64,000 nt of DNA from Escherichia phage vB_EcoM_G2285, in sequence record MK327933.1, one strand, 5' to 3'. This document shows, in pieces, positions 12,256 through 62,973 of the stretch. How positions within the stretch are numbered: the first letter of the stretch is position 1; the number at the start of each line of letters is the position of its first letter. Both the position numbers and the translations under genes were made by a program. The notes under the pieces were generated by a model, which was not told where the DNA came from, ran no database searches, and saw only the letters and a program-made list of their open reading frames with translations.

Positions 12256-12864
12256 TCAGTAACTGACAATAGACAGATTCCAGATTGTATAATTTCCATC
12301 TTGAATAATAGAATCTACACGCAGTGTAGTCCCTATAGGGAGCATAAATTCACATTCGTCAGATATAAGTCTAGCATTAGACCGTCTTGTCGCTTCAGGG
12401 AAAGCTCCATTGAACTCACAAGATGGCGCAGCCAGAATCATGTTAAGCATATGTTCACGGAAGTTGAAAGCAAATGGTGCATCTTTGATGCAGAACATAT
12501 TAAATGTTCCGTAAAAATTATACGAAGCAAAGTTACGTGCTACACCGAACACTGGACTGAAGCTCATTACTCTGTCAAATTTAATAATACTACCAATGCC
12601 TTTATCATCGAGTGTGGCCATAGTTTTCTTAGAGATTCCACGATACATTGTCTCAGGAACAGAAGACGACCAATTTCTACGAACAATTGCACTTAAATCT
12701 TGTTGGATGCTATCGGGCTTGTTTTCCATACACTGCCACAGTACACTTTGTTCAATGTCACTGAATTGCTCATCGATTTTGTACTGAAGCATATCTTGAT
12801 ATTCAGGGCATTGAGCACGACGAACCATTTCTTCAATTTCACACTCGTTATACGGCATAAACAT
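12256..12864 (-). CDS. ADP-ribosyltransferase (ModA/ModB-like, R-S-E class)
   Basis: 202 aa; YRG (Arg), SFS (STS-like) and ECEF (ExE-like) motifs in the expected order. Confidence 0.55.
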   Translation of the reverse strand: MFMPYNECEIEEMVRRAQCPEYQDMLQYKIDEQFSDIEQSVLWQCMENKPDSIQQDLSAIVRRNWSSSVPETMYRGISKKTMATLDDKGIGSIIKFDRVMSFSPVFGVARNFASYNFYGTFNMFCIKDAPFAFNFREHMLNMILAAPSCEFNGAFPEATRRSNARLISDECEFMLPIGTTLRVDSIIQDGNYTIWNLSIVSY

Positions 12865-12891
12865 TTAGGTTTCTCCTGTGGTTGATAAAAG

Positions 12892-12921
12892 TATAGTATC
12901 ATCGTCTGTAGAGTTTGTAAA
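12892..12921 (-). promoter_or_regulatory. early-type promoter (-35 GTTTAC, 18 bp, -10 TACTAT)
   Basis: minus GTTTAC-N18-TACTAT then ATCAACCACAGGAGAAACCTAAATG. Confidence 0.5.
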
Positions 12922-13274
12922 CTAAAAATTCAACATTTTTAAATGAATGATTTTGTATAATCGAGATAAAGGGGTCATATTCTAAGTCTTCAATTTCCAC
13001 AATCTCAAATCTAGAGATACCTGAGACCATGTACTCTTGTTCAAATTGACATGTCATGATAGAACCTCCATTTAAAGATAAGCCTATCATAACACGAGAG
13101 GAGGGAATGTAAACTACTTTTTAAGCTTTCCTACTAAAGGACCATCAGGACCAGGTTGTTCTAACATGAATAACGATGCTTTAAAAAGCAATGTCAACCC
13201 TTTCACCATTCGATACCATATCTCAAAGTCTTTTTCCTTGATTTCTAGTAAGAATTTCTCTTTAAATTTCTCTT

Positions 13275-13463
13275 TCATTTCCAAGGACTCCATGGTGGAG
13301 GGTCATCATAATAAGACGCTAGGTCTTTCAGGACTTCTAACGGTAAACTAAAGCCGTGTCGTTGTATAATACTATCTAGTTCATCAACAAGTTCACTACG
13401 ATGCACTTTAGGAGCCTCAACTTCAGGCTCGTCAAACATACTCATAAGGTCCATATTATTCAC
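13275..13463 (-). CDS. hypothetical small protein
   Basis: 62 aa ORF in tight minus-strand array. Confidence 0.4.
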   Translation of the reverse strand: MNNMDLMSMFDEPEVEAPKVHRSELVDELDSIIQRHGFSLPLEVLKDLASYYDDPPPWSPWK

Positions 13464-14920: not shown

Positions 14921-15442
14921 TCAGTAACCATTATCCTGGCGTTCAAAGTTGTGTTGGTTTTTCAAGTAATACAGTTTAAAGATTTCTTCAGCAGAAAGAC
15001 CTAGACCTTGGAACATATTCAGAACAAAGTGGAGGATATCAATCATCTCGAATTTAATTTCAAGCTGGTCTTCAGGGGACAGTTCATCGATACGACGATT
15101 ACGATATTCAGCATGTTGTGCTTTCCATGGCTTCCATACAGAGCTAGCGGCTTTTTCACCATTGCTCATACCACCAAGTGAAGTCAGCAGTTCACGGAAT
15201 TCATCATCAATATAATCTTTCTGATTACGCAACCAATCAACAACATCACCAGCAGTGGCCAATTCATCAGGATGTTTGTTATGTTCAGGCTTGTCATTTG
15301 CCAGACGAACCTGTAAAGATTTCTGCATATCAAGCATTACCTGCAGTGGGTCTTTATCTTCGTGAATCAGAGCATTAAAATAAGCTTCTTCTGCTTTATC
15401 AACACCAGAAATAAGTTGTGAACATTCGTTAAAGTGCGCCAT
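14921..15442 (-). CDS. 56: dCTP pyrophosphatase (dCTPase/dUTPase, MazG-like)
   Basis: MAHFNECSQ.. and C-terminal LYYLKNQHNFERQDNGY resemble T4 gp56. Confidence 0.8.
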   Translation of the reverse strand: MAHFNECSQLISGVDKAEEAYFNALIHEDKDPLQVMLDMQKSLQVRLANDKPEHNKHPDELATAGDVVDWLRNQKDYIDDEFRELLTSLGGMSNGEKAASSVWKPWKAQHAEYRNRRIDELSPEDQLEIKFEMIDILHFVLNMFQGLGLSAEEIFKLYYLKNQHNFERQDNGY

Positions 15443-15531
15443 TATTTTTCCTTTCAATTCAGTATAAGAGAGTTAATTCTAACATTAATTTTATAAAGCG
15501 TAATAAATAATAAGGTAACTAAGGAGATATT

Positions 15532-17473: not shown

Positions 17474-18133
17474 TTAACCTCGATTCATAAATGCATTAAA
17501 TATTTGGTCATCAACAGAAATTTCTAATTCAACTTCAATTGCTTCAGCCTTTTCTTCAGGTGGTAATTCGTATCCACACACTACAATTTTTTCATCGATA
17601 TCAAAATATACAGAAGCAATACGATTAATGTTATTTTCAGTTAAGTCTAAATCAACATCAACATCTTTTTGACCTACACTTAAAGGATAACTAATACGGG
17701 TTATTTTATTATCTTTAACAAAGAGTCCACCAACATACTCTGTACTACGTTTGAAGTTTACACGTTTCCGAAATGAAAGATATGATGCATCTTTACCATG
17801 AGCCCTGCTCATAGGACATAATGAATAACTAGAATAAGAGATGTCAAATCCTACACCTTCAATATGAGCCAACGTGTCATGATTAAACCAATTATAATCA
17901 TATGCCAAATCCATTATATTGTAATATGTGAAAGGCACAGGATTAACATCATATGTTGTACCTTTAAAATCTGCCCAGGCAACGATTTCGTTATCTTTAA
18001 CAATTACAAAAATTACACCGAGATGGTATCCGTTATTATTTTCATTCGGCGTTATATTATAACATTGTGCATTAGGAAATTTACCATATTTAAATGGCGC
18101 ATTTTTGTGCATATAATAAATCATATTATTCAC
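17474..18133 (-). CDS. hypothetical protein
   Basis: 219 aa ORF. Confidence 0.5.
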   Translation of the reverse strand: MNNMIYYMHKNAPFKYGKFPNAQCYNITPNENNNGYHLGVIFVIVKDNEIVAWADFKGTTYDVNPVPFTYYNIMDLAYDYNWFNHDTLAHIEGVGFDISYSSYSLCPMSRAHGKDASYLSFRKRVNFKRSTEYVGGLFVKDNKITRISYPLSVGQKDVDVDLDLTENNINRIASVYFDIDEKIVVCGYELPPEEKAEAIEVELEISVDDQIFNAFMNRG

Positions 18134-19232: not shown

Positions 19233-19421
19233 TTATCGAAAATCTGCTTCGAAAACTTTCTCGTCATTAATAAATGCTTTAACTAATGCATTGTTCACTT
19301 CAGCAAGTTGTACCGTAACCCACTCGATTTCTTCGCGATCACCTGATAACATGATATCTTTAGTGAACATCTCACCGCTTTTAAACCAACCGATAAAAGT
19401 AACTTTAGTTAATTTGCTCAT
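19233..19421 (-). CDS. dmd: Dmd antitoxin (discriminator of mRNA degradation)
   Basis: MSKLTKVTFIGWFK..MFTKDI..YAEVNNALVKAFINDEKV matches recalled T4 Dmd; start set at internal ATG. Confidence 0.82.
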   Translation of the reverse strand: MSKLTKVTFIGWFKSGEMFTKDIMLSGDREEIEWVTVQLAEVNNALVKAFINDEKVFEADFR

Positions 19422-19735
19422 ATTTCCTCGCAAAATGCCCATTCAGCATGATAAACTGTAGCGCCTTTAGTATTATTCATTTGAACTACGTCTACCGGAG
19501 AAATTACTCGATAGAGACGTGGTTCACCTCCATAAGAGCGTGCTGCTCGTCCTGCATAAATCTTTGCTAAACCGATATCTTCAGTAAAGAATACACGATC
19601 CAAGTTTTTCTTACGTCCAGTTTCAGACAGAACTCCTGTTTCTTCAGGAGGACAAAGCATGTTTTCGATGTTAGCTGAACTACTTGAACCGTGATAAAAA
19701 ATCTTAAATTCTGCTTTACAATCGATGGTTTTCAT
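19418..19735 (-). CDS. Arr-like ADP-ribosyltransferase-fold protein (candidate)
   Basis: 105 aa; FYHGSSS.. (HG[ST] motif), VFFTED, YRVISP blocks align to recalled Arr rifampin ADP-ribosyltransferase. Confidence 0.45.
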   Translation of the reverse strand: MKTIDCKAEFKIFYHGSSSSANIENMLCPPEETGVLSETGRKKNLDRVFFTEDIGLAKIYAGRAARSYGGEPRLYRVISPVDVVQMNNTKGATVYHAEWAFCEEI

Positions 19736-19761: not shown

Positions 19762-19790
19762 ATAATAACACAACTACTGGAGAAGTAAAC
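19762..19790 (-). promoter_or_regulatory. early-type promoter embedded in 14-bp-arm palindrome (arms 19740-19753 / 19771-19784)
   Basis: minus GTTTAC-N17-TATTAT; downstream arm CAACTACTGGAGAA contains the SD. Confidence 0.55.
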
Positions 19791-20165
19791 TTAAAAATGT
19801 AATTTAGATATATCTGCGTTGATTTCGTTTTGGTTTGCGTCATATGCAATTAAACGAACCGCTTTAGATGGGTCATTCAATGCATAGAAATGATGGAACA
19901 TTGCTCGAACGATATCACCATTTACGAGTTCTACCTGGATAGGAGAACCTTTTTCGAGTTGGAAATGTTCATAAGCTTTGATGGTTCGTAGATAATCAAG
20001 TTTTTGATTTCCAGCTCCAACTATTTGTACGATACGTTTGCCTGTGTTTTCCATACGAGATACAATAGATTTAGGAGCAAGAATAACGTAGGTTGCCAGC
20101 GGAGAAACTACTTCAACAGTTGTGTTTTCGGTGATTGCAGTAAAAATTGCTTGAGACATATTCAT
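19791..20165 (-). CDS. hypothetical protein
   Basis: 124 aa ORF between gp41 and dmd, not in the T4 backbone as recalled. Confidence 0.5.
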   Translation of the reverse strand: MNMSQAIFTAITENTTVEVVSPLATYVILAPKSIVSRMENTGKRIVQIVGAGNQKLDYLRTIKAYEHFQLEKGSPIQVELVNGDIVRAMFHHFYALNDPSKAVRLIAYDANQNEINADISKLHF

Positions 20166-59126: not shown

Positions 59127-59429
59127 TTAGATAGATGTAGGCTCTAATTTTATTTTCATGAACTCGGCAAATTGTCTGGCAGTTTTTATGCCTTGTTCAT
59201 GACATTCAAATGCATCATCACAGGGGCTATTTTTGTAATGCTTTGCCATATACTTATAGAATTTTTCAGAATTCTCGACATTTTGAATTTCAAACAAAGT
59301 ATATACGTTTTTAATCCCTGATTCCATAAAGTTATCAAAATATGGGTCGATATATGCAGTACCAACGATAGGAGTTGTTGCTGCAAAAAACCCCAGCATC
59401 GCCATGACAGCTATCGCTCTTAAGGCCAT
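59127..59429 (-). CDS. rI: lysis inhibition regulator RI
   Basis: 100 aa; MALRAIAVMAMLG.. signal-anchor, DPYFDNFMESGIKNVYTLFE.., KNSPCDDAFEC match recalled T4 RI. Confidence 0.85.
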   Translation of the reverse strand: MALRAIAVMAMLGFFAATTPIVGTAYIDPYFDNFMESGIKNVYTLFEIQNVENSEKFYKYMAKHYKNSPCDDAFECHEQGIKTARQFAEFMKIKLEPTSI

Positions 59430-59441
59430 ATAGGCCTCCTG

Positions 59442-59675
59442 TTAATTTTGGCCAGTATTTATTTTTCGCCTTTGGACGGCCTTAACATCTGTGAGGTATT
59501 TTTCCAGCTTGCGCTTGCGTGTATAATCAGCTTTAGAACCAGTTTGACGGATATCCTCGTTTAAATGAGAAATAGAATGTCCTAATTCTCTTCGGATTTC
59601 ATCTAATTGGGTTACAGTAAGATTACGAAGTTGTCTTTCGTTTAATTGCTGCATATATACCTCTTGGTTAGACAT
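59442..59675 (-). CDS. hypothetical small protein
   Basis: 77 aa ORF. Confidence 0.45.
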
Positions 59676-59681
59676 TAGTAT

Positions 59682-60263
59682 TTATAACAACCCTGTCAAA
59701 TCATTCCAATGCTTCCGGCATAATGACACATATCTATCAGTATCACCAATTTCAATTTGACTGCCATCTGTAATTGGAAGTCCGTCTTCCGTGACTCTAG
59801 CTACCATTGTGGCCTTTTTACCGCAATGACAGACACCTTTAAGTTCAACAAGCTTATCGGCAATAGCCATTAATGCTTGAGAACCTTCAAATAGATTACC
59901 TTTAAAATCTGTTCGTAGTCCATATGCCATTACCGGCACATTGTATACGTCAACAATACGACTAAGTTGATACACCTTTTCAGTAGTTAAGAACTGAGCT
60001 TCGTCAACAAATACGCAGTGAATATCCTTTTGTGCTGCAGCCCATTTATAAAATTCAAAGATATCCATGTCTTTTGTAATTATATTGGCGTCCTGACGAA
60101 TACCAATACGAGAGACTATTTCACCTTTTGAATCGCGAGTATCAATAGCCGGTTTAAGAACTAATACACCCATGCCACGTTCTTTATAGTTATGTGCGGC
60201 AGTAAGTAATGAAGCAGACTTACCAGCGTTCATAGCGGCATAGGTAAAAATTAAACTAGCCAT
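59682..60263 (-). CDS. tk: thymidine kinase
   Basis: 193 aa; Walker A AAMNAGKS, VDEAQF, C-terminal zinc ribbon CHCG..C. Confidence 0.92.
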   Translation of the reverse strand: MASLIFTYAAMNAGKSASLLTAAHNYKERGMGVLVLKPAIDTRDSKGEIVSRIGIRQDANIITKDMDIFEFYKWAAAQKDIHCVFVDEAQFLTTEKVYQLSRIVDVYNVPVMAYGLRTDFKGNLFEGSQALMAIADKLVELKGVCHCGKKATMVARVTEDGLPITDGSQIEIGDTDRYVSLCRKHWNDLTGLL

Positions 60264-60272
60264 AAGAGTCCC

Positions 60273-60455
60273 TTATAGTGAATTCACGTAGTCAATGAGT
60301 TCTTGTTCTTTCCTGTCAAATGATTCCAACAATGCTTGATATTCTTCGACCGTCAAAGGAGCATATTCATCATACGCATTGGTGGCTGCTTGTTCATCTA
60401 ATAGGTCATGGATAAGTTCGAACAGTTTAGCTTTCTCTTCTTTAGTTAATTTCAT
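60273..60455 (-). CDS. hypothetical small protein
   Basis: 60 aa acidic ORF. Confidence 0.4.
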   Translation of the reverse strand: MKLTKEEKAKLFELIHDLLDEQAATNAYDEYAPLTVEEYQALLESFDRKEQELIDYVNSL

Positions 60456-60946
60456 TTAGGTTCCCAATCAACAATCACAATTTCTAGTTTAGTGGAATAC
60501 GTATCTAAAATCTCTTCGATGACATCCCAGTTTCCACCACCAATACCTGCACCAATTCTTGGCATATAAATTACAGGCTTTGTTATCTTATTCTTTCCGA
60601 ATTCATTTAATTCTATTATACAATTCATTAAAGCATAGTACTCAAAATTAGGTCCCGGCTCAAACTGCGTATAAAGATTAAAGCAATAAGCTTTATGGGT
60701 CTTAAAATATTTTTCATAAACCGAATAAGTCCCGAGTTTAGACTCGTCTCCGAATTCGGTTTGAAGTTTATCGGCTTCTAAAATTTTTGGATAAGCCTTT
60801 GCTAATTGACCTGCCACACCGGCGCCCATTGTATGAAAACAATTACACCCATGAGCTATATTATTACCTTTAGAAAACAGGGCGACAATATCGCCCTTGA
60901 TATAGTTTTTAATCACTTGCTGCAAGTCCTCTAGTATAAGAGTCAA
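60452..60946 (-). CDS. macro-like / Rossmann-type nucleotide-processing domain protein
   Basis: 164 aa; HGCNCFHTMGAGVAGQLAKA and PRIGAGIGGG glycine-rich loops resembling macro (or LOG/SLOG) domains. Confidence 0.45.
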   Translation of the reverse strand: MTLILEDLQQVIKNYIKGDIVALFSKGNNIAHGCNCFHTMGAGVAGQLAKAYPKILEADKLQTEFGDESKLGTYSVYEKYFKTHKAYCFNLYTQFEPGPNFEYYALMNCIIELNEFGKNKITKPVIYMPRIGAGIGGGNWDVIEEILDTYSTKLEIVIVDWEPK

Positions 60947-61256
60947 CTAGACGGTCCACCATAGAATTGCATGCTGCCTTATCTTTAGGTTCCGCCACCG
61001 AGCATTCTAATATTTGCCATTTTTTATAGTATCTTTTAATTAAGGTAGACGCCTTGAACCTACTAGACGCCCCATCTTTTTCTCCGTCTTTATACGCATA
61101 TAACAATTTTTGTGAAAAATCTACTTTACACTCTTGACTTTTACCGCAATAATCAGACGCTGTTCTGTTTGTATACTCCGTTACATCGGTATATGTAGTA
61201 TTAGCAAGAGCATTAAATGAAACCAAGCCAACTATTAAAGCCAACATTTTGGTCAT
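60909..61256 (-). CDS. secreted protein (vs position)
   Basis: 115 aa with signal peptide. Confidence 0.45.
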   Translation of the reverse strand: MTKMLALIVGLVSFNALANTTYTDVTEYTNRTASDYCGKSQECKVDFSQKLLYAYKDGEKDGASSRFKASTLIKRYYKKWQILECSVAEPKDKAACNSMVDRLVDSYTRGLAASD

Positions 61257-61795
61257 TCTTTTATTTCCAGTAGTTTATTTGATTTAAGGTAATTAGCCTT
61301 TTCTAGGACTTCAGAAGCATATTTACTTCCAGCACTTGTCTTCCATCCCGCATTATATGAGGATATAGCTTTTCTTATATCCCCGTTATGTATATTTAAC
61401 CAATAAGAAAATTCGATATAAGCCCATCTGGCTGAATTAGACCGCTTAGATAGCATTTTCTTAATTTGGGCATCAGTCATATTATAACCAAGCTGGTTAA
61501 TTCTTGCCCTCATTGTTGGTAGATAATTTTGGAACATTCCATACGCATGGTGACCTTTCTTATCTTTAAGATTAATACCGGCAGATGATTCCTGCCATAG
61601 TATTGCGGCCATTATGTATCCAAGTCCTTTCTTATGCATATTTTCATGCGTTTTAAATTTTCCATCCTTAGAAAACTGTTCCCCAAACTGATAAGCATAA
61701 TTCAAGTTATCGAGTTGGACATTACTAAAAGTATGCTCGGAGCTATGTGCTGATAACGAAAGAGCAAATAGACCAGCGAGTAGTGCTTTTCTCAT
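61253..61795 (-). CDS. lytic transglycosylase-like protein
   Basis: 180 aa; signal peptide; ILWQESSAG ... YGMFQ SLT-type catalytic Glu-Ser and GxMQ motifs. Confidence 0.6.
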   Translation of the reverse strand: MRKALLAGLFALSLSAHSSEHTFSNVQLDNLNYAYQFGEQFSKDGKFKTHENMHKKGLGYIMAAILWQESSAGINLKDKKGHHAYGMFQNYLPTMRARINQLGYNMTDAQIKKMLSKRSNSARWAYIEFSYWLNIHNGDIRKAISSYNAGWKTSAGSKYASEVLEKANYLKSNKLLEIKE

Positions 61796-61803
61796 GTTTA
61801 CCT

Positions 61804-62262
61804 CTAGATTTTAATCACTGCTTTAGAAGCTTTTCCTGGTAGTCGTTTACTGTTAATAATAGCCATTCTACATTGAAGAGTCTTCATTTTGAATGCTGGA
61901 TTTTCGCGACAAACTGTAAGTCCTAACCAAAGATTTCCATCAGTTATTTCTAAACGGCCCGGGCGATATTCGACACCTTCGACAAAATCTTCATCAACAT
62001 CTGGACGTGCCGGCATTGATAAAAATTCTGCAACTTCTTTAACATGATTTTTTACTTTATGAAATAATTCAAAAACGTAATTCTCATCTATTTCTCTCTG
62101 GATGGCACGATCTAAGAGATGTTGAGAATACTTGATATGAAAGCCTGGTAGTCCAAGAGACTTTGCAGCATCTTTTATACCGGCATTTATTTTGCGGAAC
62201 TCCGTTTCAAAGATTCGACGGAGTTTATTACGGCGGATAAAAACGTCTGAATTGATAGTCAT
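61804..62262 (-). CDS. regB: RegB site-specific endoribonuclease
   Basis: MTINSDVFIRRNKLRR..YSQHLLDRAIQREIDE..GVEYRPGRLEITDGNLWLG matches recalled T4 RegB. Confidence 0.92.
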   Translation of the reverse strand: MTINSDVFIRRNKLRRIFETEFRKINAGIKDAAKSLGLPGFHIKYSQHLLDRAIQREIDENYVFELFHKVKNHVKEVAEFLSMPARPDVDEDFVEGVEYRPGRLEITDGNLWLGLTVCRENPAFKMKTLQCRMAIINSKRLPGKASKAVIKI

Positions 62263-62290
62263 TTTGATTTCTCCTCTAGTTGACAGGTCT

Positions 62291-62319
62291 ATAGTAACAC
62301 AACTAGAGGAGAAGTAAAC
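62291..62319 (-). promoter_or_regulatory. early-type promoter embedded in 12-bp-arm palindrome (arms 62271-62282 / 62300-62311)
   Basis: minus GTTTAC-N17-TACTAT; downstream arm CAACTAGAGGAG contains the SD. Confidence 0.55.
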
Positions 62320-62323
62320 TACT

Positions 62324-62581
62324 TTATTGATAAAATGGAGTTAAAGCCCAAGATTCTTTAGATACCATATTGGCGAAATGCCTCATCTCTTCGATTTGGC
62401 GACGACGCTGGTCAGCATAGTCTTCTTCGCCTTCTTCCTTACAATCTTCAAGGTCTTCTTCAAGATACTTTAAGTATTCACTACAAATTTTGTTGACCTT
62501 TTCTTGAAAGTCCAATAACCCAGTAATAGTAGAAGCCATTAGTATTTTTCCTCGGGTCGAAATACCGCACGACATGCCCAC
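62324..62581 (-). CDS. hypothetical small protein
   Basis: 85 aa ORF. Confidence 0.4.
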   Translation of the reverse strand: MGMSCGISTRGKILMASTITGLLDFQEKVNKICSEYLKYLEEDLEDCKEEGEEDYADQRRRQIEEMRHFANMVSKESWALTPFYQ

Positions 62582-62973
62582 ATGCTGGCTTCTTTTAGAT
62601 GTTGCTTAGCATACTTAAGAGCCTGCACTGCATCCATATCTTCTTTGGTTTGTTGCTCTGTTTCATTTTCTTTCAAGATATATGCTTCTTCAATCAGAGC
62701 ATCAAACAACAATCCAAGACGGACTTCAGCATCTTTAATAGCGTTCACTTTACCGATTTTATCATCGGTATGCGGCTTGTAGCCTTTGATGTCTTCAATC
62801 GACATAAGGAATTTCCTCATCTGTGGCAAGGTCATATTCGACCAATTGGATAGGCTCATTAATACCATATCCACGTACAGTGATATCAGTTGTCGGATAG
62901 TTTCCAGTAATATCACCCGTTCTAAATGCTTCAATGAATGATTGCTCGCCTGAGCAACTAAACCAGGCGGCAA
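62539..62973 (-). CDS. hypothetical protein (true start probably internal)
   Basis: 144 aa track ORF overlaps neighbours at both ends. Confidence 0.35.
   Translation of the reverse strand: MPPGLVAQASNHSLKHLERVILLETIRQLISLYVDMVLMSLSNWSNMTLPQMRKFLMSIEDIKGYKPHTDDKIGKVNAIKDAEVRLGLLFDALIEEAYILKENETEQQTKEDMDAVQALKYAKQHLKEASMWACRAVFRPEEKY

Follow-up and report, generated by a model that had tools for sequence, protein, structure and literature searches.

tk.4 of an RB69-like Escherichia phage: a predicted Gln-type macrodomain with a probable role against the DarTG2 defense

We analyzed a 64,000-nucleotide stretch of DNA (hereafter the window) from Escherichia phage vB_EcoM_G2285 (MK327933.1), which carries on its minus strand the gene tk.4, also called adfM. 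The coding sequence occupies 60452..60916, runs from a GTG start at 60916 to a TGA stop at 60452-60454, and specifies a protein of 154 amino acids that consists of one macrodomain with no additional domain. The original prediction, made from the DNA letters without database searches, had placed a protein with a macro-like nucleotide-processing domain on the open reading frame (ORF) at 60452-60946. A minus-strand ORF is indeed present there among the ORFs of the window, but its 5' boundary is not that of the gene. The TTG at 60946 was discarded as a start in favor of the GTG at 60916, based on the annotation of phage RB69 and on an alignment of the window with RB69 and T4. The RB69 record lists a 154-amino acid Tk.4 that starts 30 nt inside the maximal ORF, and the T4 start codon, ATG where the window has GTG, aligns exactly with the GTG at 60916. 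In all three phages a Shine-Dalgarno sequence, GAGGA, is kept 10-11 nt before the GTG or ATG and sits within 60917..60946. Furthermore, a 1-nt indel in T4 just 5' of the start breaks the frame of the supposed 10-residue extension. Together these observations lead to the conclusion that tk.4 is 60452-60916 on the minus strand; the 30 nt from the TTG (60917..60946, minus strand) are not part of it and represent the 3' end of the neighboring gene vs in another frame.

The gene belongs to an early/middle minus-strand array, densely packed between 59.6 and 62.3 kb, with the order regB (61804-62262), vs.1 (61253-61795), vs (60909-61256), tk.4, tk.2 / DUF7438 (60273-60455) and tk (59682-60263). All of the neighbors lie on the minus strand and were identified with Pfam and PHROG. 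A position "downstream of tk", as first described for this gene, is accurate in plus-strand coordinates and wrong by transcription, since every gene of the array is on the minus strand and tk.4 is therefore upstream of tk. Overlaps of 8 nt between vs and tk.4 (GTGATTAA) and of 4 nt between tk.4 and tk.2 (ATGA) suggest translational coupling of tk.4 to both. DNA identity across the array is 98.7-98.9% with RB69 and with RB69-like Mosigvirus phages, 'moha' among them. In the GenBank records of these relatives the ORF goes by 'tk.4', 'macro domain protein' or 'phosphatase', and PHROG likewise labels the Tk.4 family 'phosphatase'. A scan of 59400-62700 for promoter and terminator consensus sequences was uninformative: promoter-like sites numbered 8, where chance alone would give 11.1. 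The consensus scan also flagged as terminator-like an 8-bp GC-rich hairpin, AGGGCGATATTGTCGCCCT, with a T-rich tail at 60879-60897 (minus strand), 19 nt into the tk.4 coding sequence; this predicted hairpin could affect translation initiation or could be a chance occurrence.

Sequence profiles and a predicted structure agree that Tk.4 is a genuine macrodomain, with a likeness to the family that is far beyond chance. The Pfam Macro model (PF01661) reached 27.4 bits (E 3.4e-6), above its curated cut-off of 22, and matched over positions 2-117 of the 118 in the profile. A phmmer search of the PDB returned BT1257 (1.5e-10), Poa1p (1.3e-8) and, at about 1e-3, TARG1 and DarG, and a profile of the family returned BT1257 (4e-18), TARG1 (3.5e-16), SCO6735 (3e-15) and DarG (about 1e-12). 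Weak yet significant matches to the DarG models of NCBIfam and PADLOC also extended across the macro part of Tk.4. An AlphaFold2 model computed with 65 homologues, with a predicted local distance difference test score (pLDDT) of 95.2 and a predicted template modeling score (pTM) of 0.90, is predicted to adopt the three-layer alpha/beta/alpha macro fold. Foldseek matched this model to 147 PDB entries at E<=1e-3; the top matches, TARG1, Poa1p and DarG, had a probability of 1.00 and template modeling (TM) scores of 0.68-0.81 and were followed by BT1257, SCO6735 and then viral macrodomains. Thus the macro-domain assignment of the original prediction was correct, and the profile search and structure prediction that it had proposed as checks both gave a macrodomain and no unrelated fold.

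Based on sequence and gene order, we assign the gene as the orthologue of T4 tk.4 (adfM) in an RB69-like Mosigvirus. Its product shares 152/154 positions (99%) with RB69 Tk.4 (AAP76015) and 128/153 (84%) with T4 Tk.4 (NP_049723), the latter in a gapless alignment with an E value of 2e-102. The order vs/tk.4/tk.2/tk on the same strand is found in the window and in the maps of RB69 and T4. Additionally, the three proteins are of equal size, are encoded between vs and tk.2/tk, and share the invariant motifs HGCNCF, NLYTQ and IGAGIG-x-GNW. In a neighbor-joining tree, which carries no bootstrap support, T4 Tk.4 and the window protein fall together in a clade marked by HGCNCF and YTQ. As differences from T4, the second Gly-rich loop reads GGG in the window and GKG in T4, and the T4 genes tk.1 and tk.3 are missing at this locus from both this phage and RB69. 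It is important to realize that tk.4 is already known: hundreds of T4-like genomes carry its annotation, and its T4 orthologue has a named anti-defense role. The value of identifying it here is mainly in annotation and is small as discovery; the original observation was right but unremarkable.

The anti-defense role comes from recent work in T4. HIDEN-SEQ, a transposon screen run with a host expressing DarTG2, found significant depletion of a single T4 gene, namely tk.4 (10.1101/2025.11.20.689424). A clean knockout of T4 tk.4 was DarTG2-sensitive and the gene was renamed adfM, for anti-DarT factor Macrodomain; the gene is dispensable without DarTG2 and was hit solely when this system was present (10.1101/2025.11.20.689424). 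The authors inferred, without an enzyme assay, that the protein removes ADP-ribose from DNA (10.1101/2025.11.20.689424). Previously, a panel of Tevenvirinae that included RB69 was reported to be DarTG2-resistant throughout, and neither AdfA nor AdfN accounted for this resistance (PMC11257639). In our analysis tk.4 was the sole macrodomain gene in the window and the rest of the RB69 genome. A counter-defense against host ADP-ribosylating toxins, one of the roles first suggested for this gene, thus agrees with the DarTG2 sensitivity of the T4 knockout. We consider it probable that the gene, as the T4 tk.4 orthologue, encodes a stand-alone macrodomain ADP-ribosyl-glycohydrolase that acts against DarTG2.

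Both of the Gly-rich motifs that had been noticed at the outset are present in the translated ORF. The first, HGCNCFHTMGAG (60818..60853, minus strand; residues 22-33), is the predicted first Gly-rich phosphate-binding loop and holds Asn25; within it G23, N25 and G33 are invariant among the 65 homologues and H22 is nearly so. The second, PRIGAGIGGGNW (60527..60562, minus strand; residues 119-130), is the predicted second Gly-rich, diphosphate-binding loop, and its residues P119, I121, G122, G124 and W130 are invariant. The predicted ADP-ribose-binding elements, N25-x5-G31-A-G33 and G122-A-G124-I-G-G-G128, are therefore present and invariant or nearly so. Between them lies the NLYTQ motif (60665..60679, minus strand; residues 80-84), in which N80, Y82, T83 and Q84 are invariant in the same homologues. 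Asn25 is the macrodomain-wide catalytic or positioning Asn and aligns with N27 of SCO6735, N22 of DarG and N23 of PhiKZ gp104. In profile alignments with TARG1, DarG, BT1257 and SCO6735, Gln84 aligns with the catalytic Lys of TARG1 (K84) and DarG (K80) and with Gln85 of SCO6735, and in the alignment to TARG1 (GCGLDRLQW) the position of Asp125 is a Gly in Tk.4. With Gln at the catalytic Lys and Gly at Asp125, the predicted active site of Tk.4 is unable to use the lysine chemistry of DarG and TARG1. What is new here is the assignment, from these aligned residues, of Tk.4 as a Gln-type and not a DarG-type macrodomain.

The Gln-type proteins SCO6735 of Streptomyces coelicolor (PDB 5E3B) and BT1257 of Bacteroides (PDB 2FG1) are ALC1-like and, like Tk.4, stand-alone single macrodomains. 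They share with Tk.4 the H-x-C-N motif, a Gln in place of the catalytic Lys (Q84 in Tk.4, Q85 in SCO6735) and the positioning Asn. SCO6735 cleaves thymidine-linked ADP-ribose (dT-ADPr) from DNA and rescues E. coli from DarT (PMC9411070). The SCO6735-Q85A mutant is inactive, N27 is required to position Q85, and both residues are needed for removal of ADP-ribose from DNA (PMC9411070). Since Tk.4 carries both N25 and Q84, it is plausible by analogy that it is a lysine-independent dT-ADPr hydrolase. The differences are that SCO6735 and BT1257 are only 23-31% identical to Tk.4, have I-G-Q where Tk.4 has Y-T-Q, and occur in a cellular and not a phage context; in addition, Gly23 of Tk.4 corresponds to Val25 in SCO6735. 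Human TARG1/OARD1 (PDB 4J5R), the best Foldseek match (E 1.4e-10), has the ALC1-like class in common with Tk.4 and also cleaves dT-ADPr (PMC9411070), but its K84/D125 dyad is replaced by Q84 and Gly in Tk.4 and the identity is about 24%. Yeast Poa1p (PDB 6LFQ), another top fold match, shares H-x-C-N-C with Tk.4.

A comparison with DarG (PDB 5M31, 5M3I and 7OMU) and with gp104 of phage PhiKZ highlights how Tk.4 differs from the antitoxin whose task it would take over. The three have in common the superfamily, the macro Asn and the proposed removal of DarT2-derived ADP-ribose from thymidine, and the Foldseek probability of DarG against the Tk.4 model is 1.00. In contrast, DarG and gp104 carry the catalytic Lys in an F-P-T-K motif (K80 in Taq DarG) where Tk.4 has the invariant Gln84, and they are about 19-22% identical to it. 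DarG also has a C-terminal DarT-binding domain, whereas Tk.4 is a single domain of 154 residues. The PADLOC DarG model scored 133 bits for gp104 and 32 bits for Tk.4, and the NCBIfam antitoxin_DarG model scored 31 bits on Tk.4 against a cut-off of 250. No significant match to DarT2 was found in the window by tblastn (best E 0.55). PhiKZ gp104, which has also been named AdfM, removes DarT2 marks biochemically (PMC13309987). It is a typical DarG-type protein with F-P-T-K, matches Mycobacterium tuberculosis DarG at E 9e-25 and is about 19% identical to Tk.4. On the evidence of their residues and profile matches, T4 Tk.4 (Gln-type) and PhiKZ gp104 (DarG-type, with Lys) belong to non-orthologous clades that were given the one name AdfM independently in 2025-2026.

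The mechanism that we propose for protection of the phage by Tk.4 is as follows. Host DarT2, of the DarTG2 toxin-antitoxin defense, would use NAD+ to attach ADP-ribose to thymidine of single-stranded phage DNA, and replication would be blocked. The ADP-ribose would be bound by the two Gly-rich loops of Tk.4 (residues 25-33 and 119-128), and Gln84 would be locked by Asn25 against the distal ribose. Hydrolysis of the thymidine-ribose bond by Tk.4 would then leave the DNA unmodified again, with Tk.4 serving as an 'orphan antitoxin' in the place of DarG. The chemistry would be lysine-independent and Gln-dependent as in SCO6735, not Lys-dependent as in DarG and TARG1. We infer by analogy that the window protein would hydrolyze dT-ADP-ribose in this SCO6735-like manner.

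Several points weigh against such a role. A literature search returned no enzymatic assay of a Tk.4-clade protein on ADP-ribosylated DNA, and the DarTG2 phenotype comes from one preprint, the HIDEN-SEQ study, which was the sole source of functional data on Tk.4 in that search and concerns T4 rather than this phage. The catalytic Lys of DarG and TARG1 and the Asp of TARG1 are both missing from Tk.4. Alignments also place an insertion of about 6 residues after the Gln in BT1257 and SCO6735 that Tk.4 lacks. This insertion may be the 'mobile loop' of SCO6735 that is proposed to clamp DNA and is about 5 residues longer than in DarG and TARG1 (PMC9411070), the equation of the two being our assumption. 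Tk.4 is mildly acidic, with an isoelectric point (pI) of 5.9 and no obvious basic character for DNA binding; this argument is weak because PhiKZ AdfM, which acts on DNA, is likewise acidic (pI 5.05). Since the pI does not discriminate, we dropped it as an indicator of DNA binding. Finally, the closest biochemically characterized relative of Tk.4, Adpp (gp137) of Vibrio phage Gary (38% identity over 141 residues, E 1e-23), is not a DNA glycohydrolase.

This relative raises the alternative that the main job of Tk.4 is that of an ADP-ribose-1''-phosphate (ADPR-1''P) phosphatase like Adpp and Poa1p, converting the ADPR-1''P produced by the RES-domain NADases of the aRES defense to ADP-ribose (ADPR) so that NAD+ is rebuilt. 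Such an activity is implied in the historical 'A1pp phosphatase' label of T4 Tk.4, and the GenBank and PHROG family names given above point the same way. The Poa1p-like Adpp, found within NARP1 operons, dephosphorylates ADPR-1''P from aRES in vitro; it is required for NARP1-AP to overcome aRES and functions only together with Adps and Namat (10.64898/2026.01.28.702374). Using the Adpp and NARP1-associated macrodomain sequences in Table S1 of that study (10.64898/2026.01.28.702374), we found that tblastn with Tk.4 and with Adpp returned essentially one set of about 2,700-2,800 phage records, and that the two proteins share the motifs H-x-[CA]-N-C-F, GD-x-x-KLG, N-x-Y-x-Q and IG-x-G-x-x-GG-x-W. 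One NARP1-associated macrodomain, from Acinetobacter phage phiAbaA1, carries HGCNCF and YTQ and falls inside the Tk.4 clade. However, most NARP1-associated macrodomains fall in separate, neighboring clades marked by HQ[CA]NCF and Y-G-Q (again in a neighbor-joining tree lacking bootstrap support), and Adpp itself has the signature HQCNCF/YGQ where Tk.4 has HGCNCF/YTQ. The substrate demonstrated for Adpp is a small molecule and not DNA. Its gene lies inside an Adps-Adpp-Namat operon, whereas tk.4 is flanked by vs and tk.2, and when searched by tblastn with Gary Adps and Namat, neither the window nor RB69 63-167.5 kb gave a match at E<=0.1; the RB69 annotation lists neither partner. The published table of NARP1-associated macrodomains includes no Escherichia phage (10.64898/2026.01.28.702374). 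A phage-wide tblastn with Namat did return 189 Escherichia phage records, and those listed were genomes of 85-150 kb from other genera. The one known genetic phenotype of tk.4 is against DarTG2. Because Adpp needs both Adps and Namat and neither was detected, we take the AdfM role to be primary and any phosphatase role to be minor, and we regard phosphatase activity as an unlikely main function.

The two activities could also reside in one protein. We tentatively raise the possibility, which we do not favor, that the Tk.4/Adpp family is Gln-type, lysine-independent and bifunctional, both cleaving dT-ADPr and dephosphorylating ADPR-1''P, and that the two AdfM proteins are independent recruitments of different clades with different chemistry. 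If this were true, one small gene would disarm two mechanistically distinct NAD+-consuming defenses, DarTG2 and aRES. The wider interest of Tk.4 is mechanistic and lies in its substrate range: it is predicted to be Gln-type and not a copy of DarG, and it is nearest to the ADPR-1''P phosphatase Adpp.

The Tk.4 family is widely distributed. Searches by tblastn returned about 2,800 phage records from many host genera, and at least 471 bacterial genome loci encode homologues at 35-45% identity. We examined 80 of the bacterial loci, where the macrodomain was a stand-alone chromosomal gene among lineage-specific housekeeping genes. The bacterial HGCNCF/YTQ macrodomains thus stand alone, as SCO6735 does. 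No DarT was found near these 80 genes by phmmer with a single P. aeruginosa DarT2 query, a search of limited sensitivity, and no toxin or other partner was conserved beside them. At 8 Rhodobacteraceae-type loci a gene for a 397-residue protein, endonuclease/exonuclease/phosphatase-like by eye, lies 55 bp downstream on the same strand. At 4 loci, with a Bacteroidales representative, a protein that is Nudix/NrtR-like by eye is encoded about 220 bp downstream of the macrodomain gene.

A further alternative is that Tk.4 is non-catalytic or otherwise specific, being a binder or sponge of ADPR-derived immune signals, an O-acetyl-ADP-ribose deacetylase, or an inhibitor of DarT2 by binding. ADPR derivatives are common ligands of macrodomains, Tk.4 lacks the classical Lys/Asp dyad, and catalytically dead SCO6735 still inhibits DarT through interaction (PMC9411070). 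The Asn and Gln that SCO6735 requires for catalysis nevertheless do not vary among the 65 homologues, the most distant of them about 38% identical, and this constancy speaks for an enzyme. Furthermore, Tk.4, as a single macrodomain, has no C-terminal domain for binding DarT. Many homologues are named 'O-acetyl-ADP-ribose deacetylase' in JGI, but these automated names come from YmdB-type annotation. We consider this family of explanations very unlikely.

It had also been suggested that Tk.4 may form a writer/eraser pair with two candidate ADP-ribosyltransferases (ARTs) in the window. As such an eraser it would remove marks made by the phage's own Alt, ModA or the Arr-like ORF at 19418-19735 and so tune or undo ADP-ribosylation of host proteins or RNA. 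The phage does encode such enzymes: the first of the two ART candidates originally named, 12256-12864, is ModA, the second may be a minimal ART (see below), and Alt is present in RB69. Additionally, proteins are among the substrates of SCO6735 and TARG1 (PMC9411070). On the other hand, tk.4 adjoins no ART gene, the candidates being about 41-48 kb away, and no ART neighbor is conserved across the bacterial loci and the many phage groups that carry the family. The T4 gene is dispensable when DarTG2 is absent, and this phage has lost modB while tk.4 is intact. The linkage made by the Alt and Mod enzymes also speaks against an eraser. These are R-S-E-type ARTs that are specific for arginine (the RB69 record gives RNA polymerase alpha as the target), and Arg-ADP-ribose is reversed by ARH/DraG-type enzymes. 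TARG1/ALC1-like macrodomains, the class of Tk.4, are not known to reverse it. Asp/Glu esters and thymidine-linked ADP-ribose are the linkages on which they are documented to act (PMC9411070). Thus the writer/eraser proposal found no support, and we give an eraser of the phage's own marks very little chance. The remaining alternative, a LOG/SLOG (lysine-decarboxylase-like nucleotide-processing) fold, had only the first impression of the Gly-rich loops in its favor and is rejected, since no LOG-family match was found in Pfam at E<=1, the Rossmann-like LOG fold with its PGGxGTxxE motif had no Pfam or PDB match, and macrodomains made up both the first 50 Foldseek matches and all significant PDB sequence matches, save in the latter for serine-hydrolase designs ranking among the macrodomain-fold matches.

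The second ART candidate, at 19418-19735 on the minus strand, encodes 105 amino acids and is a homologue of RB69ORF040c (phrog_2110). It had no Pfam, NCBIfam or PADLOC match and returned nothing by sequence in a profile search of the PDB. At 90% identity its family resolves into about 140 protein clusters, which are named only in T4-like and other large phages, and its invariant residues include H15-G16, Y60, R63 and E103. The AlphaFold2 model (pLDDT 85.9) matched best to the rifampin ADP-ribosyltransferase Arr (9iaf; E 0.039, probability 1.00, TM 0.59), followed by weak fold matches to tankyrase, pertussis S1, PltA, PARP4 and ParT. The model is consistent with an ORF that may encode a minimal, Arr-like ART, so this part of the original prediction is plausible; nothing ties the ORF to tk.4. 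At the mod locus, modB is mostly deleted: RB69 12940-13377 is missing, the junction lies near 13039-13047, and about 125 nt of the 3' end are left in window 12865-13047. Thus modA (12256-12864) is the sole Mod-type ART at its locus.

With regard to the other anti-DarT genes, the window encodes adfA (gene 61.2, anti-DarT1 factor A) at 17474-18112 on the minus strand, with Arg at position 164. AdfA with Arg164 is the RB69-type allele, which is reported neither to bind nor to neutralize DarT1, whereas the form with His164 is active (PMC11257639). An intact anti-DarTG2 factor together with RB69-type AdfA (Arg164) predicts that this phage is resistant to DarTG2. A further determinant of sensitivity to DarTG1, adfN (gene 30.3), lies outside the window; in RB69 it carries a frameshift. 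Further deletions relative to RB69 were seen at window position ~14915 (RB69 15256-15446) and at ~19240 (RB69 19771-19973), the latter removing gene 61.4. Finally, Vs.1 (61253-61795, minus strand), encoded within the same array as tk.4, begins with a signal-peptide-like segment. Its match to the SLT lytic transglycosylase domain, at 18.8 bits, stays below the cut-off of 21.3, and vs.1 is annotated as an SLT transglycosylase in some GenBank records.

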